NCBI GenBank assembly: GCA_937900255.1
Contig: CALCDZ010000004.1
Coordinates: 100,413-164,412 of the forward strand
Source: an uncultured bacterium
Lineage (GTDB): Bacteria > Patescibacteriota > Patescibacteriia > SG8-24 > DYFX01
Direction of reading: 5' to 3'
Length of the DNA: 64,000 nucleotides
Below are positions 3,733 through 38,131 of the stretch, in pieces. The stretch's first letter is position 1; each line of letters starts with the position of its first letter. The notes under the pieces were generated by a model, which was given only the letters and a program-made list of their open reading frames with translations, made no database searches and was not told the DNA's origin. The translations under genes were made by a program, and so were the position numbers.

Positions 3733-3894
3733 GCCTCCATTCTACCGGCCGGCAGCCGCATGCGGAAGTGCACCCGAAACACCGGTCGGATCGTATGGGA
3801 TAATGGGCGCCGTCTTCATCGAGTTGACAATGGCCCATTTTGAAAATAAGCTTTAAGAGCAATAAGTCGCTATCCATCGAGGAAACAGGAAGAT

Positions 3895-23216: not shown

Positions 23217-23846
23217 TCACGCGCGGCGTTCCGGCCACTCCAGCAGTTCGGCCGCGCGGACTTCGATCGGGTCGCAGCGGCGAAGGGAACTGATCTGCCC
23301 GCGGTTCATGATCGGGAAGTGTTTCGCCTGGATCAGGTATTCCGGCACGTACCAGACGTCCTGCTCGTCCGTCAGCCACCCGCGCCGGTCGAAGCGTGAA
23401 AGATCGATCGCTCCCGAGTAGGAACGCAGGCTTTTCCTGTCGCTCTTGAGCGGCGTGTATTCGTGGAAATAGGACATCACCAGTTCGCGGATGGTGCGGT
23501 AGACCGGCTCGCGGTAGCGCAGCGAAAAATGGTTGGTCTTGGAGACGGCACCCCAGCAGCCATGCCGGCGGAAGAGGGCGATGACGTGGTCGTCATCCCA
23601 GATGGCCGCTTCCAGGTCGAGGATCAAGGGACGCTCGCCGTGGAAACGGAAGATCGCGGCGGCCAGCATCGCGCCTTCGATGCAGTGGGCGCGCCGCTCG
23701 CGCAGCACGCGGCGAGGGGAGAGGCAGGTGTCGCCGTCCGGCTCGCGGTTGATCGGGATGGCGTTCAGGAAATCCTGCACCTTGGACGGCGTGTCCAGGC
23801 GCATGAAAAGCGTCCGTTCCGTTCTCGTCAGTTCAGGGAAGCGCAT
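23217..23846 (-). CDS. Transglutaminase-like (papain-fold) superfamily protein, putative
   Basis: Candidate Cys/His pair in AHCIEGAMLAAAIFRFHG ... DDHVIALF ... WGAV, spaced as in TGase-like cysteine peptidases. Confidence 0.4.
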   Translation of the reverse strand: MRFPELTRTERTLFMRLDTPSKVQDFLNAIPINREPDGDTCLSPRRVLRERRAHCIEGAMLAAAIFRFHGERPLILDLEAAIWDDDHVIALFRRHGCWGAVSKTNHFSLRYREPVYRTIRELVMSYFHEYTPLKSDRKSLRSYSGAIDLSRFDRRGWLTDEQDVWYVPEYLIQAKHFPIMNRGQISSLRRCDPIEVRAAELLEWPERRA

Positions 23847-23870
23847 GTCCTGGCGGGTGATCGGCGAGCT

Positions 23871-24170
23871 TCATGCGGATTTCAGGACGGCGATGACGGC
23901 GATCGTCAGCCAGGCGGCGTTCAGGAGCGCGGGCTGGTAGGCCCGCTTCTTCAGGGAGACGATGATGATGCCGAACGCGCCGGTGATGTTCAGCATCTGG
24001 TAGGCAGCGTCGGCCGGATGCAGCCAGCCGAAGCTCGACAGCGCGTAGGCGGCGACGATGGCGGCGGCTCCGTACCATCCGAGCGCTTCGATCAGGGTAT
24101 GCATGGGGTGCGTGATTTCACGGACGATCATACCACGCGCCGCCGATTTTTTCATCCGGCGCATTGACAT
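23871..24170 (-). CDS. Small membrane protein (2-3 TM), hypothetical
   Basis: Hydrophobic 99-aa ORF (EALGWYGAAAIVAAYALSSFGWL ... AFGIIIVSL). Confidence 0.45.
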   Translation of the reverse strand: MSMRRMKKSAARGMIVREITHPMHTLIEALGWYGAAAIVAAYALSSFGWLHPADAAYQMLNITGAFGIIIVSLKKRAYQPALLNAAWLTIAVIAVLKSA

Positions 24171-24281
24171 TTTCCGCCGCCCGTGCTATCCTGTACCTGC
24201 AAACACAAAGCTCTCGGCGAAGGCTTCGGCCCCCGCCTCCAAGCCGCAATTTGCGGATTATTCACGCTCACGCACGAACGT

Positions 24282-24479
24282 ATGAACGGCATCATCAAGC
24301 GCTTGACCGATCGCGGGTTCGGCTTCATCACCCCGGAAGACAACTCCAAGGACGTCTTCTTCCACTCCGAGGCCCTCGTCGACGTCGCTTTCGACTCGCT
24401 GAAGGTCGACCAGAAGGTCACCTTCGAGGTCGAGGATTCCGAAAAGGGTCCCCGCGCCGTCAACGTCCGCCTCGCCTAA
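24282..24479 (+). CDS. cspA: Cold-shock protein (CspA family)
   Basis: MNGIIKRLTDRGFGFITPEDNSKDVFFH with RNP1/RNP2 motifs. Internal ATG of ORF 24183..24479. Confidence 0.9.
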   Translation: MNGIIKRLTDRGFGFITPEDNSKDVFFHSEALVDVAFDSLKVDQKVTFEVEDSEKGPRAVNVRLA

Positions 24480-24495
24480 CGGCGAGCGGCGACGG

Positions 24496-24526
24496 AAAAA
24501 GCCCGCCTACGGCGGGTTTTTTCGTA
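24496..24526 (+). terminator. Intrinsic terminator (GCCCGCC-TAC-GGCGGGC followed by TTTTTTCG)
   Basis: Perfect hairpin plus T-tract 17 nt after the cspA stop. Confidence 0.65.
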
Positions 24527-24607
24527 TCTTGCGTATCCGCGCGTCCTTGGAGGCCGCGGCGGGATGCGTTAAGATGGAAGCGATCCTAACGACCGACGCC
24601 GCCCATC

Positions 24608-25549
24608 ATGTCGACCAAGCGATGTCCGCACATCGGGCTCGCCGCGGCTTTCTTCGCGGTCCTGCTCTCCGTTTCCGGAGGCCGCAGCGCGATCGCCGCC
24701 GTGCCTTCCGCGACTTCTACGCCCTCGAGTCCGAGCGACGCGCTCTGCCCATCCGGCGCGCGGTACGATTTTCCGACCAAGCGCTGCAAGTGCACGGCCG
24801 GTTTCATCACGGTCGATGCCCGATGCCTGCCGGGCGCGACCGGCTGCATCAGCGAACACGGTCCCTATTCCCGCTACGACGACGCGAAGCAGGCCTGCAC
24901 CTGCCTGCCTGGCTACGCCTGGAACGCCAAGAAGACCGAGTGCATCGATCGGACCATCGCGTGCCGCGCCCAGCTCGGGGAGGACGCCTATTACGACATC
25001 CCGGCCTCCTCCTGCGTCTGCGGAGCGGGGTCCGTTTACGACACCGTCCTGCTGCGGTGCGTCACCGGGACGCTCTGGTGCGTCTCACGTTATGGCAGCC
25101 TCGCGACGTACGATGCGCTCATGCGCCAATGCGCCTGCATGCCGGGGCATCTCTTCGACCCTTCGAGGAACGGCTGCGTCGAGGACCTGCCGGTCCCGCC
25201 TTCGACCGACGCGGACGCCCAACCGGCGACCGGCACGGCTGACCTTCCCGACTCGCCGCCTCGACCGGAGAAGCAGGTGACGCCCATCTGTCCGCCCGGC
25301 ACGGCGCTCGGACTGGGCAAGAAGCGCTGCATCGCGATTCCCGAGCATTCGCACGCCGCGATCGGCAGCAAGACCGAGCTTTGGCGATGCGATGACGGGT
25401 ATGAGGAATCGGGCGAGGCCTGTCTTCTTCAGGCGTCGACATCCGTGCCGGAGACCCCTCCGGTTCCCGTCGCGCCGTCCATTCCGTCACGACAGGAAAA
25501 GAAGACCTGGTTCCAGGCCTTGGTCGGATGGTTCAAGGCGCTCTTTTGA
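24608..25549 (+). CDS. Secreted Cys-rich repeat protein (four C-x-C-x2-G-[FY] modules)
   Basis: Signal peptide. Four about 45-aa repeats (KRCKCTAGFITVDARC; KQACTCLPGYAWNAKKTEC; ASSCVCGAGSVYDTVLLRC; MRQCACMPGHLFDPSRNGC). Pro-rich linker. Confidence 0.6.
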   Translation: MSTKRCPHIGLAAAFFAVLLSVSGGRSAIAAVPSATSTPSSPSDALCPSGARYDFPTKRCKCTAGFITVDARCLPGATGCISEHGPYSRYDDAKQACTCLPGYAWNAKKTECIDRTIACRAQLGEDAYYDIPASSCVCGAGSVYDTVLLRCVTGTLWCVSRYGSLATYDALMRQCACMPGHLFDPSRNGCVEDLPVPPSTDADAQPATGTADLPDSPPRPEKQVTPICPPGTALGLGKKRCIAIPEHSHAAIGSKTELWRCDDGYEESGEACLLQASTSVPETPPVPVAPSIPSRQEKKTWFQALVGWFKALF

Positions 25550-25649
25550 AGCGTGCCTGGGTAGCGCGGGGGCTTGAAAAAACTTCGGAATCGTGCTTTG
25601 ATAGAAGCATCAAACGAGTCCGCGTTCGCGGACTCAAAAGGAGGACGTC

Positions 25650-25919
25650 ATGCGTGACCAGTGTCCCGTCCTTTCTTCGGAACAAGTCCAGATGTTCGCG
25701 GCGATCGGTCCGGATGAAGGCTCTCCGGGGGAGCGGGCGCGGGAACGGCATCGCTGCGCTCTCGTCAGGATCGGCGTCATGGAGCGTCGCGGTCAGGAGA
25801 TCCCGCCTTGCTTGCGGCGCTGCCGTGCGGAGGCAGCAGAGCTCCTTACCCCGTTCGAGGTGGACGTCACCTCGCTGGAAGCCGAGGCTGTCCTGGCCAA
25901 CCCGGACTTCTGGCGCTGA
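25650..25919 (+). CDS. Small hypothetical protein with four Cys (89 aa)
   Basis: Strong SD AAAGGAGG 6 nt upstream. Followed by a terminator hairpin. Confidence 0.5.
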   Translation: MRDQCPVLSSEQVQMFAAIGPDEGSPGERARERHRCALVRIGVMERRGQEIPPCLRRCRAEAAELLTPFEVDVTSLEAEAVLANPDFWR

Positions 25920-25949
25920 AAATCGCGCCGTGACGGCCGGCATCCATAG

Positions 25950-25981
25950 GAACGCGTATCCACGCGTTCCTTCTCATTTTC
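25950..25981 (+). terminator. Intrinsic terminator (GGAACGCG-TATCCA-CGCGTTCC followed by TTCTCATTTT)
   Basis: Perfect 8-bp stem and T-rich tail 30 nt after the stop of 25650..25919. Confidence 0.5.
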
Positions 25982-26094
25982 ATCGACGGATCCGACCGCC
26001 CGGGCGAAGGCCGTGCCATGCCGTCTTCCTCACGGGATTTGACCGCCTTCCGTGGAGGGGTCATCATGTGAACATGATTCATCGGTAAACCGAT

Positions 26095-26274
26095 ATGAAG
26101 AAAATCTCGCTGATGGCGTTCGCGGTCCTGCTCGGCCTCTCCGTCTTCAGCCAAGCCGCGGAAGCCAGGGGGCGGTTCGGCAGCCATCACGTCGGCGGAT
26201 ACACGAGCCACGGCAAGGGGAGCCACTACGTCGGCGGCTACGTGAGGACGTGCCACGGCTGGGCGTGCAGGTAG
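26095..26274 (+). CDS. Small secreted Gly/His-rich peptide (59-aa precursor: signal peptide then ARGRFGSHHVGGYTSHGKGSHYVGGYVRTCHGWACR)
   Basis: Not in the ORF track because it is below 60 aa. Classic signal peptide MKKISLMAFAVLLGLSVFSQAAEA. Internal HxVGGY repeat. C-terminal C-x4-C loop. Confidence 0.45.
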   Translation: MKKISLMAFAVLLGLSVFSQAAEARGRFGSHHVGGYTSHGKGSHYVGGYVRTCHGWACR

Positions 26275-26291
26275 ACGGGGATCGTACGGCC

Positions 26292-26576
26292 ATGCGTCGC
26301 GAACAGGCTTCAAGATTGCTCAAGGAACTGCGGCGAGGAATCGAGGCGTTGCGTGACGGCCAGTTGGACGTGGCCGATCAAGTGGCCTACGCCTTGTCCG
26401 GCCTCCTCGAGGGTACGGGCTCCGATGATGACGACCTTCTTGCCCATGAAGCCGTGGAAGAATACCTGACGTGCCTTGCCCGCGACCCTCGCGACTGGGA
26501 ACGCCCCGCCTCGTACTTCAACGCCCTCGTGCATCACCTATCCACGTCAAGGACCGACCAGGAATCCAGTGAATAG
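26292..26576 (+). CDS. Hypothetical acidic protein (94 aa)
   Basis: In-frame ATG of ORF 26052..26576, 18 nt after the peptide gene. Followed by a strong terminator. Confidence 0.4.
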   Translation: MRREQASRLLKELRRGIEALRDGQLDVADQVAYALSGLLEGTGSDDDDLLAHEAVEEYLTCLARDPRDWERPASYFNALVHHLSTSRTDQESSE

Positions 26577-26606
26577 AAAAAAGCCCATATAAATGGGCTT
26601 TTTTCT
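26577..26606 (+). terminator. Intrinsic terminator (AAAAAAGCCCAT-ATAA-ATGGGCTTTTTT)
   Basis: Perfect 12-bp palindromic hairpin plus T6, immediately before the island's left direct repeat. Confidence 0.65.
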
Positions 26607-26616
26607 GGTGGAGATG
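26606..26616. repeat. Left direct repeat (candidate attL) TGGTGGAGATG, identical to the 3'-terminal 11 nt of the tmRNA-like gene
   Basis: Exact 11-mer shared with 37228..37238, with a further CG two bases on. Lies at the GC-content transition. Confidence 0.5.
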
Positions 26617-26834
26617 CCGCCGGAAAGTTGGAACTCCCTCCTGGACTATGTGAGGAAGTGGTATCTGGTCATCAAATCCCTAGATCCAAGACGCGTCAGG
26701 GCTCGTCAGCGGCCTTCCATGGGGCGGGAGTCGTGCGCTGCTCCAAGCCATCCTTCAGGAAGGCCAGAAATACCTTCGGAAATGCCCATTTTTTAGGGCT
26801 TGCCGTTCTTGCTGGACTGTACGATAATCTGGCC

Positions 26835-29800
26835 ATGATGAGACTGATTACCGCCACCCATATCAAGAACTGGGCGGAAAACGATGAGCGGCGCTGCCAG
26901 GACACCCTGCCGCTTCTCCTTCGTCGTTTGATATGGGCCACGACGGGAAGCCCCCCGAAAGACCTCCACTTCCCAACCGGAGATAGCGTCGTGCTCGGAG
27001 GGTGGGACGGTCGCCTCGAAACCCCCGTAGTTTTCCCGTACTTCCCCGATGGCATCTCCCGCTGGGAAATCGGCACGGGCGCCTCTCCCGGCGTAAAAGC
27101 GGAGCAGGATTTCGCCAAGCGTAGTAAGGATCCGCACGGAGCAAACCCCCAAGAGACGACCTTCGTCTTCGTGACCCCTCGGCCTTGGCCGGAGCACGCC
27201 GACTGGGTGAAGGCGAAGAAGGATCTGAAAATCTGGAAAGACGTCCGCGTCGTCAACGCGGACGCGCTCGAGGCGTGGCTCGCGCTCGCCCCGGTCGTCG
27301 CCCTGTGGCTTTCGCGAGAACTTGGGTTGACGCCCACCCCGGGCATGCGCGATATCGAACGGACATGGGAAGAGTTCGCCTTATCGTCAGTCGAGCCGCT
27401 CACCACCGAGCTGGTGATCGCTGGTCGTAAGGCGGAGGTCGAAGCGGTGCACGGATGGCTCAGACACACGGCCGACGTCCATGCAGTCCGTGGCGACTCT
27501 ACGGACGAGGCGTCCGCCTTTTTGTACTCAGCGATTGACGCCCTTCCTGGAGATGACCGCGAGAAGGAACTCTCGCGGTGCATCGTCGTGGATGGCCTGC
27601 AGCAGTTCCGCGATTGCGCGGAAGCTTTTGAGAAAACTCCCCTCATCATTGTCGTGCCGAACGATTGCCGTCCCGCAGTTGGTTGGGCGGTGAGGAAAGG
27701 TCATCACGTTTTCTTGTGCGTGGAACCGCAGGCGATCGGTGGCGCAGGGGATGTGAGACTGTCGCGGCCGCGTCGGGGCGTCGTTGAAGAAGCTTTGAAA
27801 AAAATGGGCTTGTCGGATGACAAGGCTCAAAAGTTTACTCGAGATTTCGGCCATAGCATCCCCGTCCTGCGACGGCACCTCTCTCGATCCAATGCTGTAA
27901 GCGCTCCGGCTTGGGCAAGCGCTGATTCGGCGCAGGCACTTTTGCCAATCTTGCTTGCTGGCGCATGGACTGAAGAAAAGGAAGGCGACCAGGAAGTGAT
28001 TCAAATGCTTTCCGGGTCAACCCACGAGGAATATACCAAGGTGCTGAGTGGTTTTTTGCAGATCGAGGATTCCCCGATTCGCAAAGTTGGGAAAGTCTGG
28101 ACGCTTAAGGCTCCTCTGGATGCCTGGTTTCTTCTTGCTGGTCAACTTACGGACGCCTCATTGAAATCGCTGGGGCAAGTCGTTCACGCTGTTCTTACAC
28201 AGACCGATCCGAAATATGACCTACCCGCAGACAAGCGTTGGTCTGCGGCCATATACGGAAAGTCCAACCGCTATTCCGAATGGATTCGCACAGGCCTCGT
28301 TGAATCCCTGGTTCTTCTTGCTGTGCACGGTGAGCGCGCTTCTCAGGCTGCTGCGCCGCAGGCTTTTGCTAATACGGTAGTTAAAGACGTATTGGAATCA
28401 GCTAAAAAATGGGAGATGTGGGCGTCCTTGAATGACGTTCTCCCGCTCATTGCCGAAGCTGCACCAGACGCATTCCTTGATGCAATCGAGAAAAACGTAA
28501 AAGAGAACCCAGTTCTCTTCGAAGAGTTGATGCAGGACGATGCCAGCATGTTTGGTGAGTGCAAGCACGCGGGGCTGCTGTGGGGTCTTGAATCTCTTGC
28601 ATGGAGTACGACCTACTTCAGTCGAGCCGCGCAAGCCCTCATGAGTCTCGGCAAAATCGATAAGGGTGGACGCTTTGCAAATCGACCAATGAATAGCCTG
28701 GGAGAAGTGTTTCTGCCAGGTCTTCCACAGACCCACGCTTCTCCCAAGGATCGTTTGGCAGTTTTTGATGTACTCGTCGGAAAAGACCACCAAAGCGTTT
28801 GGGGGTTCAGTAAAAATTATTTTAATGGCGGAGCCATCAGCGAATCCCATAGGTTTCGATGGCGAGCTTCGGGTGGTGATCGACGTGGCTTGGAATCCGA
28901 AGACGCAAGGGACTACAAGGAATACATGGAAGGGCTTCTTCCGAGGCTTAGTAGTTTGGCGTCCTTGCGTGAAAATATTGTGTCATCGCACGAAAACTTT
29001 CTTCACCTTTCGCCCAGCATAAAGGATCGGCTCATCACCACGTTGCTCGAAATGGCCCCGGATACATTCTCAAAAACCGAAAGAGAACAGCTGCTTCAAA
29101 ATGTTCGGAACACTTTGAATTGGATCAACAGTTATGGAGAGGGGAAGGATAGGCAATACGTAGAAGGGCTCAGTAAAATCTTAACGATTTTTGAGCCCAA
29201 AGAGACGCTTGAACGGGTGGGCTGGCTTTTAGAGACACCATGGCCCACCCTTCCACAGGGTGAAACACGCAGCTATGAAGAGAAACAAGCAGAAGTAAAA
29301 GCGGCGCAGCTGGCGGCGGCGCGCGAAATCCTGGATCAAGTGCCGCTTAAGAATATCCTAGAGTACGCAAACGCTCTCCAGCACGTCGGCATTTTTGGAT
29401 TCTCTCTCGGGTGTGCGATTCGTGACGCCAAAGAAGATGAAGTTGTCCTTGAAGGTATTCTTAAGAATGCTGATCATAACTCCGGTCTTGTTAAAGGGTA
29501 TGCACTTGGCAGGGTTGAAAAGTTGGGAGCTGAATGGGTGGATCAACAAATAGTGCGCTTGCAAGCACTTGGAGGCTATTCAGATGAAGACTACGCCTTG
29601 TTGTATTTTGGGCTTCCCGAAGGGGCGGAAACATGGGTCGCGGTAAGCGCTTCTGGCAAGGGCGTTGAAGACGCGTACTGGAAACAAGCCCGAGGCTTCT
29701 CTCGAACTGATAAGACGGAAGACGCCGAGCTCGCCGTTGAAAAGCTGCTCGATGCCAAACGTCCTTTGGTTGCTCTTGATGTTGCTGGCGATCCGAAGCT

Positions 29801-30635
29801 TTCGATTTCAAGTCAGCTACTCAAAAGACTCATACAGGAAATCCTCGCAATCGATCCAGAGGATGAGAAGGTTAGATTTGATACGATGGCGAGTTTTCAT
29901 CTCGCACATGTATTCAACCAGCTATACAAACAAGGAGAACTCTCCCTTGAAGAGATCGCGATGCTGGAGTGGCCCTTCGCCGCACTTTTGGACGACATTC
30001 AAAGACACAGCTCTGTACCCACGGCTATTCATAGGTTACTGCAGAAAGAGCCAAAGTTTTTTGCGCAGCTCGTTTCGTTTGCATACAAGCGAGACGATTT
30101 TACTCCTGATCCGGGCCGCGAAGGACTCGACGAAAAGAAAGCACAGAACATGGCTCGGAATGCTCATGAGGTATTGAGGTCATGGCGTCTGTTCCCAGGT
30201 CTCAAGGATGATGGCTCACTCGATGAAAAGGACTTAAGGAGTTGGGTTGATCAAGCCAGACAACTGTGCGCCGCGACAAAATATGTAAAGGGTGGGGATC
30301 TGCAGATTGCGGAAATGTTTGCGTACGCACCGAGCGATCTCGATGGGACTTGGCCCCATGTTGCCGTTCGGAACATTATTGAAGATCTGAACAACGAACT
30401 GATTAATAAACACATTCAGACCGGCGTATACAATAGTCGGGGCGTCGTTTCTCGTAGCATGAATGATGGGGGTGCTCAAGAGAGAAAACTGGCACAAAAA
30501 TACCGTGATATGAGCGAAGCCGTGAACGCTAAGTGGCCGCGCACGGGTGCGTTGCTTCGTTCGATCGCGGAAGCCTACGAGCAACAGGCGAAACACGAAG
30601 ACGTCACAGTTGAACTGTACGATCTGCGCTTCTGA
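26835..30635 (+). CDS. Large protein of unknown function (1266 aa from ATG 26835; the ORF opens at 26628). Mostly alpha-helical. No Walker A/P-loop or other recognisable catalytic motif found by eye.
   Basis: Single uninterrupted ORF across the GC gradient. N-terminal about 150 aa globular domain (MMRLITATHIKNWAEN...LPLLLRRLIW...FPDGISRWEIGTG). Long helical body. Translationally linked (12-nt gap) to the downstream genes. Confidence 0.55.
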   Translation: MMRLITATHIKNWAENDERRCQDTLPLLLRRLIWATTGSPPKDLHFPTGDSVVLGGWDGRLETPVVFPYFPDGISRWEIGTGASPGVKAEQDFAKRSKDPHGANPQETTFVFVTPRPWPEHADWVKAKKDLKIWKDVRVVNADALEAWLALAPVVALWLSRELGLTPTPGMRDIERTWEEFALSSVEPLTTELVIAGRKAEVEAVHGWLRHTADVHAVRGDSTDEASAFLYSAIDALPGDDREKELSRCIVVDGLQQFRDCAEAFEKTPLIIVVPNDCRPAVGWAVRKGHHVFLCVEPQAIGGAGDVRLSRPRRGVVEEALKKMGLSDDKAQKFTRDFGHSIPVLRRHLSRSNAVSAPAWASADSAQALLPILLAGAWTEEKEGDQEVIQMLSGSTHEEYTKVLSGFLQIEDSPIRKVGKVWTLKAPLDAWFLLAGQLTDASLKSLGQVVHAVLTQTDPKYDLPADKRWSAAIYGKSNRYSEWIRTGLVESLVLLAVHGERASQAAAPQAFANTVVKDVLESAKKWEMWASLNDVLPLIAEAAPDAFLDAIEKNVKENPVLFEELMQDDASMFGECKHAGLLWGLESLAWSTTYFSRAAQALMSLGKIDKGGRFANRPMNSLGEVFLPGLPQTHASPKDRLAVFDVLVGKDHQSVWGFSKNYFNGGAISESHRFRWRASGGDRRGLESEDARDYKEYMEGLLPRLSSLASLRENIVSSHENFLHLSPSIKDRLITTLLEMAPDTFSKTEREQLLQNVRNTLNWINSYGEGKDRQYVEGLSKILTIFEPKETLERVGWLLETPWPTLPQGETRSYEEKQAEVKAAQLAAAREILDQVPLKNILEYANALQHVGIFGFSLGCAIRDAKEDEVVLEGILKNADHNSGLVKGYALGRVEKLGAEWVDQQIVRLQALGGYSDEDYALLYFGLPEGAETWVAVSASGKGVEDAYWKQARGFSRTDKTEDAELAVEKLLDAKRPLVALDVAGDPKLSISSQLLKRLIQEILAIDPEDEKVRFDTMASFHLAHVFNQLYKQGELSLEEIAMLEWPFAALLDDIQRHSSVPTAIHRLLQKEPKFFAQLVSFAYKRDDFTPDPGREGLDEKKAQNMARNAHEVLRSWRLFPGLKDDGSLDEKDLRSWVDQARQLCAATKYVKGGDLQIAEMFAYAPSDLDGTWPHVAVRNIIEDLNNELINKHIQTGVYNSRGVVSRSMNDGGAQERKLAQKYRDMSEAVNAKWPRTGALLRSIAEAYEQQAKHEDVTVELYDLRF

Positions 30636-30647
30636 TGCTTCTGATTC

Positions 30648-31004
30648 ATGAAACCTGCAAGCGCCATTCTTATCGGCTTGGCATCAGCTCTTACGGGGTA
30701 TTTTATTTGGGCTCTTCATAAGAGAACTAAGGAGTTGGTGTACGGGTTTGTTAAAGCGCTTTTTGTCCCCATCATTCTGGTACTGGTTGTATTTGCTTAC
30801 GGAGAAACGGCAGGATGGGGATGGCTGGAAAAGGTTGGCTGGGCTATTGGGTATACCGTTGCCGGTATTATCGGGGCGATAGTGATTATGATTGTGGGAG
30901 GGGTGATTTTAATTAATTTGAGAGAGCGTTGGGAAATGAGAGCTGCATTTGTCGAGAAAGAAGAAGGAGAGAAGGAGCGCCCTAGCGAAGTTTCACATGG
31001 ATAG
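30648..31004 (+). CDS. Small membrane protein (118 aa, 3 TM helices, charged C-terminal tail)
   Basis: Hydrophobic segments ILIGLASALTGYFIWAL, FVPIILVLVVFAY, AGIIGAIVIMIVGGVILI. 12 nt after the large gene. Its stop overlaps the next start. Confidence 0.5.
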   Translation: MKPASAILIGLASALTGYFIWALHKRTKELVYGFVKALFVPIILVLVVFAYGETAGWGWLEKVGWAIGYTVAGIIGAIVIMIVGGVILINLRERWEMRAAFVEKEEGEKERPSEVSHG

Positions 31005-32082
31005 AAATAAGAGTATTTTCCTTGCGTTCGTTGGCCAACCAATTGAGCAGGTCGATGCAATATTTGAGATACAAAACGGTTATGAATGTTGGGACTTAAA
31101 ACAATTCAAACGTGATGAGTTTATTGAAGCACTAAAGAAAAAAATAACACCCATTAATGACAATGTATTAAAGTTTTATAGTGCGGAGACAGCATCGCAC
31201 GATTCTTTCGGTATCACAGAAGAACAATATGGAGAATGCTCCTGGGGATTACTGATCCCTGAGGGTCGTGAAGATGTATATTCGGCCGCGTACGCTGAAA
31301 CGATATTTTTATTGAACCTTTATTCACCCACGTTCCTTCGTCCTATTTTCTACGGCTCCGAAATGGGCATTCACCCTATAGCACACGATCAGCCCACTTT
31401 TTTCTTTGCCCATTTTCAGAACCAGTCGCACATTTTCAAGACGAAAGGTTTTGTCACCTTTTTCAAAACACTGCTCCCTCAATCCCAATATGGGACTTGG
31501 CAGCTAGACCGTATACAAAAGTGGGGAAAAGAAGATTGGAGACTTTTTGTTGCGGGCTGGCTCTATTCGGGACTCAAGGACTACGAAAATAGTAAAAACT
31601 CTTTCGGGTGGCAAAGAGAATCTGCTGACATGGCTGCCATATTGGAGGCACTGTTTACAGCAGGTGATTCACAAAACGAGGAAGTGGGTTATAGATTAAG
31701 AAAAAGGATGGCCGCCCTCCTTTCCTGGATATTTCCAGAAATAGAAAAAGAAGTAAAAGATTTGTACACTCAGCGAAGCGCGTTTGTTCACGGATCTTTT
31801 TTTGCACAAATCGAGAAAGACACTAGACATAGCTACAATAACTTACCGTCCCCCGATTTCAATTTGTTGTATAAACAAAAGGAGCATGTGCGGCTGGCTT
31901 TGATTTCTTATCTGCACCTCGCCAGACTTCTCAATGAGAAACCTCTTGAGTATGAAGGCAACACGACGGTGATTAACGCTCTTGAAGAGGCAGTTATCAA
32001 TGTTGCGTTGCGAGATAAGCTGACTAGTGAGGTTCGCAATCTGTTTTCAATGATGCCGACCCCATATTTTAAAATGTTTTAA
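30997..32082 (+). CDS. Hypothetical 361-aa protein with a HEPN-like R-x4-H-G motif (putative Abi/HEPN-type RNase effector)
   Basis: Motif KDLYTQRSAFVHGSFF matches the HEPN R-[polar]-x3-H-G signature in the C-terminal helical region. AT-rich (about 38% GC). In-frame ATG overlapping the upstream stop by 8 nt. Confidence 0.4.
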   Translation: MDRNKSIFLAFVGQPIEQVDAIFEIQNGYECWDLKQFKRDEFIEALKKKITPINDNVLKFYSAETASHDSFGITEEQYGECSWGLLIPEGREDVYSAAYAETIFLLNLYSPTFLRPIFYGSEMGIHPIAHDQPTFFFAHFQNQSHIFKTKGFVTFFKTLLPQSQYGTWQLDRIQKWGKEDWRLFVAGWLYSGLKDYENSKNSFGWQRESADMAAILEALFTAGDSQNEEVGYRLRKRMAALLSWIFPEIEKEVKDLYTQRSAFVHGSFFAQIEKDTRHSYNNLPSPDFNLLYKQKEHVRLALISYLHLARLLNEKPLEYEGNTTVINALEEAVINVALRDKLTSEVRNLFSMMPTPYFKMF

Positions 32083-32374
32083 GTCGACGAAGTGAGCGAT
32101 ACGGGTGTGGATAAACATCCAAAATGTTATTGATTGTTATCTGATGTTATAAATATTTCTTCCAAAGAAAGTCTTGCATCATTTTTGTAAGTTGCTAAAC
32201 TGTCGATGACAGTTGAGTTCGTCGAGAAAAGACGACCTCGGAAAAATGAGCAACTGCCGTAGTATTGTATCCATTTTCTGTGACGTATCGGGTCTGCCCC
32301 GCTGCTTCATAGAAAGTGTTTAGCGATCTACTGGCAGTAGTCCATCGCAAAGCCCAAGGCTTTGACGAGTGAGA

Positions 32375-32403
32375 AGTCGCCAGTCCACTGGCGACTTTTT
32401 TTC
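32375..32403 (+). terminator. Intrinsic terminator-like hairpin (AGTCGCCAG-TCCA-CTGGCGACT followed by T8)
   Basis: Perfect 9-bp stem and T8 in the 480-bp noncoding stretch downstream of the cargo operon. Could also be the 3' end of a small RNA. Confidence 0.45.
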
Positions 32404-32560
32404 GTGCAATGCTATCAGTCAAAAGATGCAGAGAACTTTTGGGAGAAAAGGGGTCTGACCTGACGGATGAGCAGGTGGCCACTCTTTGTGACTCATTGTA
32501 CGACATCGTGAATCTGATTTTCAACCGCCTTCAAAAAAGTAGTTAGGAACCACAGATACT

Positions 32561-32812
32561 ATGAAAATGAAACCGTTCCCAACGCCGCACTTCAGCTGCT
32601 CTGACCTCTATCTCGCTGCCTATCTTATCGCAAAAGGGCTGAGGCTTGTTGATGTGGACAAGGCTGACAGTAAGCGAGCTGTTTTCGTATTTTCTGATGT
32701 GGTGGGCAGAGAGGATACGGTCGCATCCTTTTGGTCAAAGGAGGCCCGCATAGAGCCGCGCGCCTTTATTGCTGCGATCAAGGAAGCCAAAGAACGACTT
32801 TACAGCGACTAG
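32561..32812 (+). CDS. DUF5659-domain protein
   Basis: 83 aa. FSCSDLYLAAYLIAKGLRLVDV...AVFVFSDV...ASFWSKEARIEPRAFIAAIKEAKERLYSD matches the DUF5659 pattern as recalled from memory. Confidence 0.55.
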   Translation: MKMKPFPTPHFSCSDLYLAAYLIAKGLRLVDVDKADSKRAVFVFSDVVGREDTVASFWSKEARIEPRAFIAAIKEAKERLYSD

Positions 32813-32827
32813 CGCTGTAAAAAGTGA

Positions 32828-33802
32828 ATGAATATGAGAAATCAGATCAAGTTTAAGGGCTTTCTCAAATCCTATCGATTGAAGCTGAAGAGGACGATGG
32901 ACCTCTCCGATGCCGAATATCGTCTTTTTGATGTACTTATTCACATTGTCGATTGGGATAAAGATCACGAGACTTTTGGCACGACAAGTGAATCGTTACG
33001 AGATATTAAGGAGCATTATTTGCCGCACCACGCCATCGGTAAACTTTCTGAAACCATTACGAGCCTAGCCAAACGAGATTTTCTGAAAAGACTGCGTGAC
33101 AGGATCGAGGTCAACAACTTCAAATGGCTTATTAGTAAAAGTGTTCAGGATGGTGAACGATTTAATGGCCTCGTTGATGAACCAACTGTTCACCATGATG
33201 AACGACTTGTTCAGGTTACAGAACAGAAAATTCAGCCCGGCGAACACGATGTTCATGCTTCCGAACACGGTGATAAAAAAGGCGTCGGCGAAGCACGCCA
33301 CGTAATGCCTATGAACATTGGAGAAAATGAGGTGACTGTTCACCCTGATGAAACTCAAAAAACCTCTAAAGAACATTTAGAGAAACTGAAAGAACATCAG
33401 ACAAACGAAGAAAATCTGCTGATGATTCAAAAACTGAAGAACGAATACGGTCCGGACATCGAAGTGCCGATCCGGAACTTCTCTTTGTTGCTCGTCCGAG
33501 ACGCCGCTCGTCGCATGGAAGCGCGCATTCGCCGTGGCGAGCCAGTAAAGAATCGTGTCGGCTACATTACGAAACTTTGCAAAGAAGGGATCGCATGGGA
33601 CTTAAGCGAAGAAAAAGCTGATGAGGACCGTGCTGGGGCGCGGGCTGTTGCACAAGAAGAGGAGCAGAGAAAATTGATGGAGGAGCACGATCGGCCCATG
33701 ACGCCCGAAGAGAAGGCTCGTCGAGAGGAGACCCTCAGGTCTTTTAGGGAGATGCGCAACAAGATTGGGCGCAACAACGCCCCCCCGCCTCAAAATAGAT
33801 AG
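32828..33802 (+). CDS. Hypothetical protein with an N-terminal winged-helix-like domain and a Glu/Lys/Arg-rich C-terminus (possible replication initiator or DNA-binding protein of the element)
   Basis: LSDAEYRLFDVLIHIVDW...LAKRDFLKRL (wHTH-like). Charged low-complexity tail. Positioned between DUF5659 and the iteron-like region. Confidence 0.4.
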   Translation: MNMRNQIKFKGFLKSYRLKLKRTMDLSDAEYRLFDVLIHIVDWDKDHETFGTTSESLRDIKEHYLPHHAIGKLSETITSLAKRDFLKRLRDRIEVNNFKWLISKSVQDGERFNGLVDEPTVHHDERLVQVTEQKIQPGEHDVHASEHGDKKGVGEARHVMPMNIGENEVTVHPDETQKTSKEHLEKLKEHQTNEENLLMIQKLKNEYGPDIEVPIRNFSLLLVRDAARRMEARIRRGEPVKNRVGYITKLCKEGIAWDLSEEKADEDRAGARAVAQEEEQRKLMEEHDRPMTPEEKARREETLRSFREMRNKIGRNNAPPPQNR

Positions 33803-33854
33803 CAAAAGGTTTCTTGGGAAAAATCAAATTTGAAGAGGGTGTCCCAGCGCAGAT

Positions 33855-34186
33855 CATTAAATCGCCAAAGACAACTCCCACCACCCCTTTCCCAATCCTT
33901 ACATACGGGGCGATGAAGATGAGGTGTCACCCCGTATGGCGAGGTGCTATCGCCTGTTATGCCGGATATACATTTGTTGAGGTGCGGTGCATCTAACCAG
34001 TGAGCACTCTTGGCAAAACAAAAAATGCCCCGACAGGCACCAACGTCATTAAATAGCCATTTCATTTAGTCCGTGTGGAGCAAATGCGCACATCTAACGA
34101 CATTTGAATCATATCAGACGAGCCCGCCGCGTCAAGAGAGGGCATCAACTCACATTTGCTTCATCCTACAGCATTAAATGGCTATT
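33855..34186. promoter_or_regulatory. AT-rich noncoding region with three CATTAAAT[CAG]GC repeats, including the inverted pair AAATAGCCATTT / AAATGGCTATT. Candidate binding sites or origin for the element
   Basis: Copies at 33855..33866, 34047..34062 and 34172..34186. Located between the wHTH gene and the excisionase-like gene. Confidence 0.35.
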
Positions 34187-34203
34187 AATAGCATTGAACG
34201 TGT

Positions 34204-34437
34204 ATGAACCAGTCTTCAGAGGCACGAATAGGATCAACTGCGGAATCGGAAGCGCTCGGCATCAAGGCCGTAGCGCAATCCCTAGGCGTTTCCAGGGCGA
34301 CGGTCTTGCGTTGGATTCGAGCAAAGAAACTCGAAGGGTTCTTTCGCATCGGTCATAAATGGCTTATTCGGAAGTCTGACTTCGAATCATTTATCAATGG
34401 AAGAGTGGCCCAGCAATCAAGGAATGATGCCGTATGA
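34204..34437 (+). CDS. Excisionase/AlpA-family helix-turn-helix DNA-binding protein (HTH_17)
   Basis: VSRATVLRWIRAKKLEGFFRIGHKWLIRKSDFESFI is the excisionase-family HTH signature. Upstream of the recombinases. Confidence 0.7.
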   Translation: MNQSSEARIGSTAESEALGIKAVAQSLGVSRATVLRWIRAKKLEGFFRIGHKWLIRKSDFESFINGRVAQQSRNDAV

Positions 34438-34823
34438 AATATCTCGCAATCATCTTTATTGTCTTTTGGATCCTTGTCGCAACGTCCATGCTTCGGGATG
34501 AGCACAAGGAATCAAAGAGTAAAGGGAAAAGAGTGAATATATTTCAGAAAGCGTCAACGCTGTTATTGTTGCTCATTGGTTCATTAGTACTTACAGCTTT
34601 CGGACTTGGCCTCGTTGGTGGCCTCGTGTTTTTCATTCCTTCATCCATTCGCTATTTACTCACCGCACATTCCGGCTACCAGCTGTTTATTGGGTTGGGG
34701 GGACTGGCTATTTCAATTCTCCTTCTGAACATCTGTAGGCCACTTTGGGAAATGCTTATCGATCGCCTGCGTGCAGCTGCCAACTTCATTCGGAAATTAA
34801 GCGCACACAAATGGAAACTCTAA
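34434..34823 (+). CDS. Small membrane protein (129 aa, 3 TM), hypothetical
   Basis: Hydrophobic ORF overlapping the excisionase stop (ATGA) and the integrase start. Confidence 0.4.
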   Translation: MKYLAIIFIVFWILVATSMLRDEHKESKSKGKRVNIFQKASTLLLLLIGSLVLTAFGLGLVGGLVFFIPSSIRYLLTAHSGYQLFIGLGGLAISILLLNICRPLWEMLIDRLRAAANFIRKLSAHKWKL

Positions 34824-35698
34824 TAAATCAATACCTGGACTACCTCATCGTAGAGCGGAACTTTTCGCCACGCACAGTTGAGGCATACGAACATGATCTT
34901 GGTAAGTTTACGGGATTCCTACAGGCCAACGGTCGTTCAGACGTGCTTGCCGTGACACAGGAAGATGTAAGTCATTTTCTTTCTGAATGTGCCGACACAA
35001 ACAGCGCCGTTACGTTGACGCGCAAGCTATTTGCCATCCGCTCCCTGTTCAAATATCTGTTGCGTAAAAAATTGATCGTGGTTAACCCCACGAGCGAAAT
35101 CGAGAAAATGAAGCTTCCTCAGAAGCAGCCTGCCTACCTTACGGAATCTGAGTATCGAAATCTGATTGAAACAGTGAAAAGAGAAGCGGCCCCCTATGAT
35201 CGATTACGTGATATCGCCATCGTCCTTCTCTTGCTCGGCACCGGCATACGCCTTTCAGAACTCGTGGGGCTCACTCTCGACAGGGTTAGTTTGGAGAAGA
35301 CCGGCAGGAGCATCAAGGTAAGGGGTAAGGGTGATAAAGAACGAACCATCCCCCTAATGGGCGAGGTCGTATCTGTTCTCGAAACGTACTTGAAACACCG
35401 CCCCAAGGTCACCAGCGACCACTTGTTCATTAGTCGGCGTGGCGACACGCTACATCCGCGTAGTGTCTACGGTCTTGTAAAAAAATATCTTCAAAAATCA
35501 GATATACAAAAAACCAAGGCGGCTGTTCATTCGTTGCGCCACACTTTTGGAACTTCGTTGATGAACAACGGAGTTAATATCGTGGTCATCCAGGAACTTC
35601 TTGGACACAAGAAGCTGGAGACTACGCGGCGCTATCTGCACATCAACAACATTGATTTGCGTAACGCCGTCGATTCATTGGTCTTGAGCAAACCTTGA
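34811..35698 (+). CDS. Tyrosine recombinase/integrase (XerC/XerD-like)
   Basis: N-terminal SAM-like domain (YLDYLIVERNFSPRTVEAYEHDL). Catalytic residues R (GTGIRLSEL), K, HSLRHTFGT, R, and Y in LGHKKLETTRRYLH. Confidence 0.85.
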   Translation: METLINQYLDYLIVERNFSPRTVEAYEHDLGKFTGFLQANGRSDVLAVTQEDVSHFLSECADTNSAVTLTRKLFAIRSLFKYLLRKKLIVVNPTSEIEKMKLPQKQPAYLTESEYRNLIETVKREAAPYDRLRDIAIVLLLLGTGIRLSELVGLTLDRVSLEKTGRSIKVRGKGDKERTIPLMGEVVSVLETYLKHRPKVTSDHLFISRRGDTLHPRSVYGLVKKYLQKSDIQKTKAAVHSLRHTFGTSLMNNGVNIVVIQELLGHKKLETTRRYLHINNIDLRNAVDSLVLSKP

Positions 35699-35699
35699 T

Positions 35700-37427
35700 A
35701 TGGCAGCTGACACGAAAGATGGGAAACTGATCGCGCTGATCTACGCCCGCGTTTCGACCATCCAGCAGGATTCTGAGAGCCAGGAACATCGGTGCAGACA
35801 ACGTGCGGATCAGAGTGGTTACGTTGTCGAGGAGGTATTTCCCGACAAGTTCACAGGCGGCGGCGATTTTTGGAAGCGCCCACAACTGAAAAGGCTTTTG
35901 AATCACATCGACAGGAATCCGCATAAAAAATATGTGGTCATTTTTGACGACCTCAAGAGGTTTGCGAGAGACACCGAGTTTCATATCAGGCTAAGGAACG
36001 AGTTTAAAAGCAGGGGCACGAAAGTTGAGTGTTTAAACTTCAATTTTGAGGATTCTCCTGAAGGTGAGTTTGTCGAGACCATGTTTGCGGCACAGGGCCA
36101 GCTTGAGCGTCAGCAGAACAGGAGACAGGTCATTCAGAAAATGAAAGCGAGGCTAGAACGCGGTTACTGGACTTTCGACGTGCCGCCAGGTTTGAAATAC
36201 ATTAATGATCCCGTGCATGGGAAAATCCTTGTCGCGGACGAACCCAAGGCCAGTATCATCCGTAAAGCTCTGGAGGGCTTTGCAGATAATACCTTTCCTA
36301 ACAGGGTTGATGTTCAAGCCTTTCTGGAGAGCCGGGGTTTTCTCCATCGTGAGAGGCACAAGTACGTGGGTCTTGAGCAGGTGAACCGGATTCTCAAAAG
36401 AGTCCTATACTCTCCATGCATCGAATATCCACACTGGGGTATTTCGAGGCGTAAGGGTCACCACCAAGCATTAATCAGCCTTGAGACCTTCGAGAAGATC
36501 CAGGAGAAGCTCAAGGGTACGGCTAAGGGATTGGCCAGAAAGGATTTGAACCTAGATTTTCCGGCCAGGGGATTCGTGGTTTGTTCGGGTTGCAGCAAGC
36601 CACTTACGTCCAGCTGGACGACCAAGCACAAGGGTCGTGAGGGTTACAGGAAGGCCTACTACCGCTGTCACAGGGCAGGGTGCCCCGAAAGGAACAGGGG
36701 CATCCCCAAAGAGGCGCTGGAGGGCAATCTGGGTGGGATTCTGGGCCAGGTGGGGGCTACGGAGGAAGTCTTGGCTCTGACTAAAGAAGTGGCCCTTGAT
36801 GCCTGGAACGAGCGCCATGCCTACTCCAAGGAGTCGGACGGTCAAAGGCTCATTGAGATCGCAAAGTTGGAATCAGAAATCAACATCTATCTTGAACGGA
36901 TTACCAAGACCAACACCGAGGCCGTCATTGGCGCATACGAAAAGAAGATCACGGAGCTGACGAACAAGAAACTGCTCTTGGAGGAAAAATCTAGCGGCGA
37001 CAATCAAGACACCGGCATTAACTTTGAAACCGCACTTGAGACCGTGTTTGAGTACATCAAAAACCCATACGCGATATGGACGAACGGGATTTTTGAAGAC
37101 AAGCGTTTGGTGCTCAGGATGATCTTCACTGGGCCGCTCACCTATAACAGAAAAACCGGCTTTGAAACTACCGGTTTTTCTCTGCCCACAATGCTTTTTC
37201 GGCATTCTGGGGCTTCGGATTTCGGTTTGGTGGAGATGGCGGGATTCGCACCCGCGTCTGGGGCATGTGGGACGGCGCGCACTACAGGCGTAGGCGACTC
37301 GGGTTTCCTGCGCCCGGAGGCGCGGGACGGAGCGCGGACTCGGAGTCGCCGAGATGCCCGCGTCCGTGACCTCGATCCAACCGTATCGCGCGCCTCGAGA
37401 CAGGACGCGCGGCGGATTTCCTTATGA
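35700..37427 (+). CDS. Large serine recombinase (resolvase catalytic domain, recombinase domain and Zn-ribbon). The last roughly 65 codons run antisense through the tmRNA 3' end and may not be native.
   Basis: N-terminal ALIYARVSTIQQDSESQ (Ser nucleophile). Cys cluster CSGCSKPL...CHRAGC. Starts 1 nt after the tyrosine recombinase stop. Confidence 0.8.
   Translation: MAADTKDGKLIALIYARVSTIQQDSESQEHRCRQRADQSGYVVEEVFPDKFTGGGDFWKRPQLKRLLNHIDRNPHKKYVVIFDDLKRFARDTEFHIRLRNEFKSRGTKVECLNFNFEDSPEGEFVETMFAAQGQLERQQNRRQVIQKMKARLERGYWTFDVPPGLKYINDPVHGKILVADEPKASIIRKALEGFADNTFPNRVDVQAFLESRGFLHRERHKYVGLEQVNRILKRVLYSPCIEYPHWGISRRKGHHQALISLETFEKIQEKLKGTAKGLARKDLNLDFPARGFVVCSGCSKPLTSSWTTKHKGREGYRKAYYRCHRAGCPERNRGIPKEALEGNLGGILGQVGATEEVLALTKEVALDAWNERHAYSKESDGQRLIEIAKLESEINIYLERITKTNTEAVIGAYEKKITELTNKKLLLEEKSSGDNQDTGINFETALETVFEYIKNPYAIWTNGIFEDKRLVLRMIFTGPLTYNRKTGFETTGFSLPTMLFRHSGASDFGLVEMAGFAPASGACGTARTTGVGDSGFLRPEARDGARTRSRRDARVRDLDPTVSRASRQDARRISL
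37228..37238. repeat. Right direct repeat (candidate attR) TGGTGGAGATG, the 3' terminus (CATCTCCACCA) of the tmRNA-like gene
   Basis: Exact match to 26606..26616. The island's low-GC DNA ends here. Confidence 0.5.
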
Positions 37428-37640
37428 CACCGCGATCCGACTAGGAGATATCGTCGGGCGATGGGTCAGTCGCGCTTAGGCGAGGACCGGAGCGAAGGAC
37501 GGAGCGAACGCGTTGGCGAACGCCGTCTTCACTTTTGCGAGAACGTTGGCACGTAGTCGTTTGCCTTTTTATTCATGACGGGAAGGCTCCGTCAACCTGC
37601 GCGAGCCGGTCACGCGCTCCATCGAGTCTATTCATCCCCG
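37228..37640 (-). ncRNA. ssrA: tmRNA (ssrA), one-piece, about 413 nt
   Basis: Minus-strand RNA begins GGGGATG-AATA-GACTCGATGGAG (acceptor and D-like region, cf. E. coli GGGGCUG-AUUCUG-GAUUCGACGGG). Contains UAAAAAGGCAAACGAC (cf. E. coli UAGUCGCAAACGAC at the resume codon). Ends with T-arm GCGGG-TGCGAAT-CCCGC and CATCTCCACCA, giving a G3:U70 Ala-type acceptor. Lies directly downstream of smpB on the same strand. Confidence 0.6.
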
Positions 37641-37681: not shown

Positions 37682-38131
37682 TCAGCGCCGCAGCTTGAGA
37701 GCGCCGCGGATCTGCCGGTCGATGTCGCGTTTCTTGATCGATTCGCGCTTCTCGTACTGCTTCTTGCCGCGCGCGACGGCGATCTCGATCTTGATGCGGC
37801 CAGACACCATATAAGCACGGAGCGGGATGATCGTCAATCCATCCTCCTCGCGTTTTCCGCGCAGGCGTTCGAGCTGGCGCTTGTGCAGGAGCAGCTTCCG
37901 GGAGCGTTCCGGGTCGTAGTCGGGCAGGGGACCGGCCTTGGGGTAGCGGGCGATGTGCGCTCCGACCAGCATCGCTTCGCCGCGGGTGAAGGCGACGTGG
38001 GCGCCTTTCAGCTTCAGGTGCCCGGTCTTGGCGGACTTCACCTCGTGGCCGTCCAGCACCAAACCCGCCTCGAGTTTCTCGAGAAGCTCATAGTCGTAGC
38101 GGGCGCGGTCGTTTGAGGCGAGGTCGTCCAT
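37682..38131 (-). CDS. smpB: SsrA-binding protein SmpB
   Basis: 149 aa from MDDLASNDRARYDYELLEKLEAGLVLDGHEVKSAK. Conserved SmpB core. Internal ATG of ORF 37682..38248. Confidence 0.85.
   Translation of the reverse strand: MDDLASNDRARYDYELLEKLEAGLVLDGHEVKSAKTGHLKLKGAHVAFTRGEAMLVGAHIARYPKAGPLPDYDPERSRKLLLHKRQLERLRGKREEDGLTIIPLRAYMVSGRIKIEIAVARGKKQYEKRESIKKRDIDRQIRGALKLRR

Follow-up and report, generated by a model that had tools for sequence, protein, structure and literature searches.

A serine integrase gene cut by integration at the 3′ end of ssrA in an uncultured patescibacterium

How did a 10.6-kb island come to lie against the 3′ end of ssrA, the gene of the transfer-messenger RNA (tmRNA), in an uncultured patescibacterium, and which of its two recombinases put it there? 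The locus lies in a stretch of 64,000 nucleotides (the window) of contig CALCDZ010000004.1 from assembly GCA_937900255.1, for which a reading made from the letters alone (the sequence-only reading) had proposed an element integrated at ssrA. We propose, with a probability of about 0.8, that the island has the anatomy described below and that the integrating enzyme was a serine integrase, a large serine recombinase (LSR), whose own gene was cut in the event.

The insertion site in ssrA

The site is defined by the following features (aa, amino acids).
26575..26606, minus strand: A-tract, hairpin with 14-bp arms and T-tract, taken for the displaced original ssrA terminator (inverted repeat I20 and folding)
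26606..26616, no strand: attL core, left TGGTGGAGATG copy, which is the tmRNA 3′ end CATCTCCACCA in reverse complement (count of two copies)
26617..37227, no strand: integrative island, 10.6 kb, between the two 11-bp repeat copies
37228..37238, no strand: attR core, the right copy of the 11-mer and the last 11 nt of ssrA (repeat count and Rfam)
37228..37639, minus strand: ssrA, complete, with its CCA end intact (RF00023)
37682..38131, minus strand: smpB, 149 aa, the host gene directly upstream of ssrA (PF01668, 5e-48, and gene call)

The exact pair of 11-mers from which the sequence-only reading had started was borne out: TGGTGGAGATG occurs exactly twice in the window, at 26606..26616 and 37228..37238, where 0.02 copies are expected by chance and two or more were seen in 0 of 100 shuffles. 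Taken in reverse complement, the right copy gives the final 11 nt of ssrA (the longer 3′ end reads ...CGCCATCTCCACCA), and Rfam confirmed that the gene it ends is that of a complete, minus-strand tmRNA (67 bits versus a gathering score of 47, model positions 1-374). ARAGORN called no tmRNA in the window or in the related locus L086, whereas Rfam did. The island is thus inserted in the 3′ end of ssrA with its ends defined by the 11-bp repeat, and the tmRNA 3′ end was regenerated exactly upon integration.

The base composition changes with the insert. The GC content is 0.61-0.70 in the flanks versus 0.41-0.53 across 28000..37000; the fall described by the sequence-only reading is therefore real, but the leftmost ~1.1 kb of the insert (26900..27600) stays at 0.63-0.64, and no 500-nt window lies below 0.41, so that the minimum is not the 35% that had been given. 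Host-like, uniform codon usage is not found in most island genes: the GC content at third codon positions (GC3) is 0.43-0.61 in element genes versus 0.82-0.89 in host genes.

By its smpB relatives the host belongs among the Patescibacteria near Uhrbacteria. In two of the three closest species with data, L008 and L007 (SmpB 81% and 83% identical), an empty site was found, in which the CCA of ssrA is followed at once by a terminator of A-tract, hairpin and T-tract; in the third, L006 (86%), the contig ends after the first 8 nt of such a terminator. The ssrA of L008 is 83% identical to that of the window, and the genes 60-2200 nt past it are, by tblastn, homologues of window positions 23229..24470, which belong to the left flank. 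The empty site that was to be expected in relatives lacking the insert does exist, though in none from the same species.

The window has its own copy of this terminator design, at the wrong end of the island. On the minus strand the sequence directly after the left repeat copy reads GAAAAAAGCCCATTTATATGGGCTTTTTTC, and 26575..26606 is a perfect inverted repeat that folds with −19.9 kcal/mol (z = −8.5). A simple terminator scan missed it, probably because the T-tract pairs with the A-tract; folding reveals the hairpin. Because design and position match the terminators in L008 and L007, we take it for the original ssrA terminator, moved 10.6 kb. The strong terminator that had been seen beside the left repeat is therefore real, but it is not demonstrably that of an upstream host gene, to which it had been ascribed. 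When the outer flanks are joined, the reconstructed attB consists of the ssrA 3′ end followed by the terminator and resembles the empty sites; its predicted junction is ...ATGGGCTTTTTTCTGGTGGAGATGGCGGGATTCGC....

That nothing was inserted at all, and that a chance pair of 11-mers encloses native DNA of low GC content, is highly improbable. The repeat is short with its 11 bp, and a repeat search across the island found no longer flanking direct repeat. Such a chance pairing would have to be reconciled not only with the expected number of copies but also with empty sites seen in three relatives, with the terminator's displacement, with an integrase gene split in two and with sister islands at ssrA in other Patescibacteria, which have this module between different flanks (the last two described below).

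Some observations on ssrA and the left flank may be added. Read by eye from the Rfam alignment, the sole frame of ssrA with a typical hydrophobic end gives a long tag, approximately ANVLAKVKTAFANAFAPSFAPVLA. In sample SRR6231188 the assembly breaks inside ssrA at 37487..37493, ~260 nt from the attachment site; the two contigs, L002 and L004, overlap there by 7 nt, perhaps because of strain variation. The ~2.1 kb (24480..26575) that separate the displaced terminator from the genes in synteny with L008 have host-like codon usage and are specific to this lineage; within them 24608..25549 encodes a cysteine-rich, secreted-looking protein of 313 aa. The order of a small membrane-protein gene and a cold-shock-like gene differs between the window and L008.

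An integrase gene divided between the two ends of the island

Two features 10.6 kb apart belong to the serine integrase gene.
35700..37427, plus strand: LSR open reading frame (ORF) in the integrated state, 575 aa (PF00239, 2.5e-25)
26617..26796, plus strand: detached 3′ coding end of the serine integrase gene (translation, in frame with the core)

The ORF contains no stop codon before attR but runs through the core and then for 62 codons antisense to ssrA; residues 1-509 are encoded by the element, residues 510-513 (LVEM) by the core and the last 62 by antisense ssrA. Contigs from other samples encode exactly this 575-aa protein as well. Directly behind the left repeat the same frame reads PPESWNSLLDYVRKWYLVIKSL..., a natural C-terminus (PPESWNSLLDYVRKWY...), which stays open to 26796 and ends 39 nt before the next gene. 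Joined to the body of the enzyme, this tail gives a circular-form protein that aligns with the tails of homologues not adjoining a tRNA. A hidden Markov model (HMM), built from ten native tails with the core residues omitted and searched against the 1692 six-frame peptides of the window, found its best match in the peptide that directly follows the left repeat (E = 0.015, against 0.8 for the second best). Since the ORF crosses attR and the native tail stands in frame at attL, attP lies within the serine integrase gene (predicted junction ...GGATTTCGGTTTGGTGGAGATGCCGCCGGAAAGTTGG..., in which the 37227 side is joined to the 26617 side). Integration has cut the gene after codon ~513, and the integrated copy encodes a 575-aa protein with an unrelated tail. 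The textbook arrangement that had been claimed for this ssrA element does not include an integrase ORF that crosses attR while its native C-terminal piece remains at attL, and in this respect the claim did not hold.

Two classes of tails are also found among the homologues, and they correlate with the genomic context. In the best 120 LSR homologues (43-71% identity, 500-600 aa) peptides antisense to a tRNA or tmRNA gene (such as ...LVEMAGIEPAS or ...VDPTGLEPATSSLQMRRS, well known as products of reading these 3′ ends in antisense) form the C-terminus of 97-99, according to a rough regular-expression count, and ~12 end in the native tail motif V-[ED]-[MI]-x3-SWNQLE-x2-I-x-E. One of the latter, P0038, is encoded on a contig of 12,376 bp, circular because of a 55-bp terminal overlap, together with a primase-helicase and ParB and with no tRNA gene; behind two other native-tail homologues element genes follow, again with no tRNA. 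The catalytic Ser19 is invariant, as are Y15, R17 and V18 in 26 homologues. The closest homologue, P0002 (71% identical), has a tail, VDPGRIELPPPQCECGVIPLYYGP, that resembles antisense tRNA and not antisense tmRNA, so that close relatives may switch targets between tmRNA and tRNA.

What the exchange of tails would do to the protein was considered with an AlphaFold model of P0038 (alignment of 79 sequences, mean predicted local distance difference test score, pLDDT, 88.5), which stands in for the window protein. The model shows a catalytic domain, a recombinase domain, a zinc ribbon and a long coiled coil, and its best PDB matches in Foldseek are full-length complexes of serine integrases with their attachment sites (E 1.6e-18 to 6e-12), namely 9dxh (1.6e-18), Bxb1 9iu2 (7e-17), 9y66, phiC31 9tep and 4kis. 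The predicted fold is that of a canonical large serine integrase. The identity to the solved enzymes is only 12-20%, and PDB matches by sequence are confined to the catalytic domain; the Recombinase and zinc-ribbon domains are both present in LSR homologues by sequence. The residues corresponding to the att core lie in a low-confidence linker (497-511), after which comes a C-terminal helix (509-524). With its core codons in a linker past the last folded domain, integration would spare the canonical domains and swap only the terminal helix.

From these data we propose the following course of events. The island would have entered the chromosome of the Uhrbacteria-related host through site-specific recombination within the 3′-terminal 11 nt of ssrA, with attP at the L-V-E-M codons of the integrase's own coding sequence. 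In the free circle the gene 35700..37238 would continue into 26617..26796 and encode 572 aa, ending in the conserved helix (SWNxLE..I.E). Insertion carried the original ssrA terminator 10.6 kb off and made the integrase gene read on into antisense ssrA; since all canonical integrase domains are kept, the integrated form can probably still act, e.g. in excision. On the minus strand at 37146..37180, 50-80 nt 3′ of ssrA and within the integrase coding region, there is a hairpin with a U-tract (GAGAAAAACCGGUAGUUUCAAAGCCGGUUUUUCUG), which could serve ssrA as a substitute terminator; it rests on T-T-G-F codons, where the homologues mostly have T-A-x-[LF].

Targets of the integrase clade and the neighbouring tyrosine recombinase

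Upstream of the LSR gene stand three genes, two of which bear on the question which enzyme integrated the island.
34204..34437, plus strand: excisionase-family helix-turn-helix (HTH) protein, 77 aa (HTH_17 PF12728, 7.9e-14; phrog_66)
34434..34823, plus strand: hydrophobic protein, 129 aa (gene call; only a sub-threshold MFS_1 match)
34811..35698, plus strand: Xer-like tyrosine recombinase, 295 aa (PF00589, 1.3e-39; PF02899, 2.4e-20)

All the genes that had been placed inside attR are there: the LSR, the tyrosine recombinase separated from it by 1 nt (stop at 35698, LSR ATG at 35700), the excisionase-family HTH protein and the small membrane protein. The HTH protein scores 38.5 bits with TIGR01764 ("excise"; cutoff 28.8). 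Identification of the tyrosine recombinase as XerC or XerD was rejected, as it stays below the cutoffs of both equivalog models (TIGR02224, 243.8 versus 335; TIGR02225, 233.9 versus 330); it is Xer-like and island-borne.

The targets of the LSR clade were read from 80 metagenome loci, 70 of which extend at least about 80 nt beyond the LSR match and were counted as informative. In 63 of the 70 a convergent tRNA (44) or tmRNA (19) gene overlaps or abuts the 3′ end of the LSR gene, and in none of the 70 does such a gene stand there on the same strand. ARAGORN called 58 of the junctions, 55 of them distinct in sequence, and the tRNA targets include those for Ala, Arg, Thr, Tyr, Leu, Met, Lys, Val, Phe and Ile. 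The integrase clade is thus tied to the 3′ ends of tRNA and tmRNA genes. In the complete chromosome of Pyruvatibacter mobilis a distant LSR homologue overlaps tRNA-Lys; the element there encodes a relaxase together with an OLD-nuclease/UvrD pair, and its LSR has no tyrosine recombinase beside it. Among annotated phage and plasmid records there is no integrase homologue at E ≤ 1e-30, and in IMG/VR only 3 loci have the integrase family.

Two further elements have both ends on one contig: L107 with 7.6 kb, core TGTGGAGATGCTG and the attL tail LQENWNHLETYIFE in frame, and L145 with 5.0 kb, core GTGGAGATGG and the attL tail VENNWNAIESFIFDW in frame. Their reconstructed attB sites consist of a tmRNA end and a terminator, and their cores are 13 and 10 nt long. 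Common to the window, L107 and L145 (shared cores 9-13 bp) is GTGGAGATG, which would place the crossover in the acceptor stem's 3′ strand and the discriminator base. In L107 a 21-nt copy of the tmRNA 3′ end (3756..3776) lies 170 bp further out than the 13-nt attL core (3926..3938); it may have been left by an earlier integration, or a tandem one, at this ssrA. In L158 (5486..8883) a 13-nt repeat of the tRNA-Arg 3′ end stands at a distance of just 3.4 kb from attR, with MVRPNALHAIHRAMIL continuing in frame behind it; this could be a chance match or else a minimal element whose native tail has diverged.

The arrangement of HTH_17 protein, small protein, tyrosine recombinase, LSR, convergent tmRNA gene and smpB recurs in close homologues from other Patescibacteria (L086 and L087-89), where the cargo consists of restriction-modification or helicase/caspase genes and the flanks differ from those of the window. 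In four related loci a LOOT RNA motif (RF03000, 81-92 bits) is found 0.6-2.2 kb upstream of the serine integrase gene (L168 8381..8501; L154 3692..3807; L118 5302..5426; L116 7771..7884) and may be a component of these elements; Rfam finds none in the window.

Could the tyrosine recombinase with its HTH partner have integrated the island, with the LSR as a passenger (a resolvase, an invertase or an integrase for another site) whose 3′ end overlaps attP fortuitously? We regard this as unlikely. The island does have a complete tyrosine recombinase and an HTH_17 Xis-like gene, both conserved in the closest subclade, but they stand beside the LSR in only 10 of 75 loci, all of the closest subclade, to which the HTH protein at this position is restricted, and all at tmRNA; no tyrosine recombinase stands beside the LSR in the Pyruvatibacter element or in the circular L091 element. 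The enzyme is moreover Xer-like and without an arm-binding domain, and a repeat search across the island found no candidate site for it. Serine integrases need only a short shared core, whereas tyrosine integrases that target tRNA genes usually have a longer identity than 11 bp, for which the block found here is short. In general, tyrosine integrases account for nearly all of the islands mapped to genes for tRNA or tmRNA (PMC7192596), which speaks for the tyrosine enzyme. We nevertheless assign integration to the serine integrase, because its link to tRNA and tmRNA genes holds in 63 of 70 loci and that of the tyrosine recombinase in 10 of 75. The recombinase would most likely be the LSR at the ssrA-proximal end, and the Xer-like enzyme and the excisionase-like HTH protein would be accessories of a subclade that might resolve multimers of the circle or have another role.

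Several points weigh against our proposal. The tyrosine recombinase with its excisionase-like partner is itself a possible catalyst in the island. The match of the tail HMM is modest (E = 0.015), the helix of the tail is modelled with a pLDDT of only about 55-60, and the Pfam Recombinase and Zn-ribbon matches of the window LSR are below the gathering scores (19.4 versus 21.1 and 20.7 versus 25.3). The tail shares sequence with the right half of attP, and TGGAAC stands exactly 12 nt after GTGGAGATG in each of the three attP sites as reconstructed; the conservation of the tail may therefore reflect the constraint on a DNA-binding site. Dyad symmetry was looked for in the reconstructed attP sites, and no clear inverted half-sites were found; in the attB sites of the window and L107 the best dyad is merely the terminator hairpin. 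Finally, an attP junction of the window element was not found, the 572-aa attP-form protein is missing from a collection of 15 billion proteins, and the contigs with this organism, from three samples, are all occupied, so that, with neither an excised form nor an empty site from the same species, the element may be fixed or inactive.

The last point leads to another explanation, which we consider possible but less likely than not: the island arrived in the same way and became a fixed, immobile remnant by an altered tail or other decay, and the run-on of the integrase into ssrA is functionless. Besides the uniformly occupied sites and the lack of a record of the attP-form protein, the first 300 codons of the 1266-aa cargo gene, which are near the host in GC3 and suggest long residence or recombination in the lineage, are in its favour. 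The bulk of the island, with a GC3 of 0.43-0.61, is far from the host and argues against long residence; the ORFs of the integration module are all intact, with the catalytic Ser and the invariant residues present, the two att cores are perfect, and at attL the ORF of the native tail remains open.

Cargo, related systems and meaning

The remainder of the island contains five genes.
26835..30635, plus strand: cargo protein, 1266 aa (full-length match to phrog_18693, 6e-180)
30648..31004, plus strand: predicted membrane protein, 118 aa (ORF and gene call; only a sub-threshold DUF3792 match)
30997..32082, plus strand: 361-aa protein (gene call in the identical contig L001)
32561..32812, plus strand: DUF5659 protein, 83 aa (PF18903, 2.5e-11)
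32828..33802, plus strand: 324-aa ORF (the gene caller took only 33422..33802, 126 aa)

The 1266-aa protein belongs to phrog_18693, a PHROGs family of unknown function, and has 265 homologues in several phyla; the 120 listed are 44-57% identical and most of them full-length. Pfam, NCBIfam and a PDB sequence search gave nothing for it. PADLOC gave no significant match, the best being a weak one to PD-Lambda-4_A (1.9e-4 over ~110 of 1335 residues), and none at all for the other cargo proteins. Homologues stand alone in L177 and L179, so that the 118-aa and 361-aa neighbours are not conserved partners; the "three-gene operon" in which the sequence-only reading had seen the cargo is no conserved unit. 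The 1266-aa protein would be of a kind found on other mobile elements, plausibly with a role in defence. In L177 (5073..13567), a genome of 4.28 Mb, the homologue lies in an insert of ~6.7 kb that splits a Mg-chelatase/ComM-like gene into a fragment of 80 aa and a remainder of 506 aa.

The cargo gene is compositionally mosaic, and hence so is the island: GC3 is 0.68-0.82 in codons 1-300 and ~0.5 after, with an identity to homologues that does not vary along its length. The pattern points to recombination, near 27,700, of an incoming low-GC copy with one that had long been resident in a high-GC host. For the 361-aa protein Pfam, NCBIfam, PHROGs and PADLOC gave no match, and for the 324-aa ORF the library scans, which included Pfam and PHROGs, gave no family. 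Homologues of the DUF5659 protein are encoded ~3.3-3.5 kb upstream of the LSR in L087/L088, L100, L101 and L102; its gene belongs to the backbone common to the related ssrA islands.

The island is of a familiar kind, and what is new is its integration module, a serine integrase clade at tRNA and tmRNA 3′ ends with attP in the integrase ORF. With islands of the Islander/TIGER type it shares insertion into the 3′ end of an RNA gene that is regenerated, a displaced 3′ fragment as distal repeat, an integrase gene beside the intact RNA gene, sporadic distribution, foreign composition and defence-type cargo (here seen in the sister elements). The classical agent of such islands is a tyrosine integrase, whereas here a whole serine-integrase clade is tied to these 3′ ends and the block of identity spans no more than 9-13 bp (acceptor-stem 3′ strand, discriminator base, CCA). 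Characterized large serine integrases are known chiefly from sites in protein-coding or intergenic DNA. Those of Bxb1, phiC31 and Listeria A118/LI have the domain architecture and the short att core in common with the enzyme described here; unlike in these, its target is the end of an RNA gene, attP is in the integrase ORF, and the C-terminus depends on the integration state.

In 2020 Mageeney et al. reported that tRNA and tmRNA genes host 44.5% of the elements with a tyrosine integrase versus 4.9% of those with a serine integrase; the latter cases (14 of 297) were found computationally and were stated to be previously unreported and in need of experimental proof (PMC7192596). The tycheposons of Prochlorococcus are, in the available part of the preprint by Hackl et al., likewise cargo elements at tRNA and tmRNA genes, in other hosts; a large serine recombinase is present in place of the tyrosine recombinase in 27 of 937 tycheposon-like elements (bioRxiv 10.1101/2020.12.28.424599), and that part of the text contains no att-in-ORF arrangement. 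A literature search, of incomplete coverage, for serine integrases that carry attP within their own ORF or target a tRNA or tmRNA gene returned only the passing remarks cited here.

Recombination sites within a gene of the element are known from two other systems. The "suicidal" integrases of the SSV type, tyrosine recombinases stated to be exclusive to archaea (PMC8371274), also carry the recombination site in their own gene, which is partitioned by integration, and form a compact int-att module; theirs is split so that the enzyme is presumed inactive, whereas in the bacterial serine enzyme the terminal helix alone would be exchanged. In mycobacteriophage BPs attP lies in the 3′ part of the repressor gene and integration alters the C-terminus of the repressor (PMC4557955). 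Integration-dependent immunity of BPs resembles the present case in that integration yields state-specific protein forms; it differs in that the gene is that of a repressor, integration is by a tyrosine enzyme and the swap has an established role, whereas here the integrase gene itself is concerned and the swap may have a role.

That the exchange of tails is regulatory is a tentative idea, to which we give well under even odds. The same caution applies to its wider form, a speculation in which a widespread bacterial LSR clade, specialized for tRNA and tmRNA 3′ ends with attP in its own ORF, would use two isoforms as a switch controlling directionality, stability or partner binding. If so, isoforms with the native helix and with a target-encoded tail would alternate with each integration and excision, and the clade would be a serine-family, bacterial counterpart of the archaeal "suicidal" integrases and of integration-dependent immunity. 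The short, near-universal core of acceptor-stem 3′ strand, discriminator base and CCA would then explain the hops among tRNA species and tmRNA.

Dozens of independent junctions place a clade of serine integrases at the 3′ ends of tRNA and tmRNA genes, in Patescibacteria and at least one alphaproteobacterium. These genes are the classic sites of tyrosine integrases, and their use by serine integrases has so far been a matter of a few unverified computational cases. For annotation this means that routine calls of these integrase ORFs include spurious antisense-tRNA tails, and that the native tail motif makes island ends easy to find. An attP within an ORF that swaps the C-terminus, known for archaeal tyrosine integrases and a phage repressor, provides an idea for the control of directionality. 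Serine integrases require no host factors and only short sites, and enzymes of this family that act at RNA-gene ends could aid the insertion of DNA in little-studied bacteria, including the Patescibacteria.

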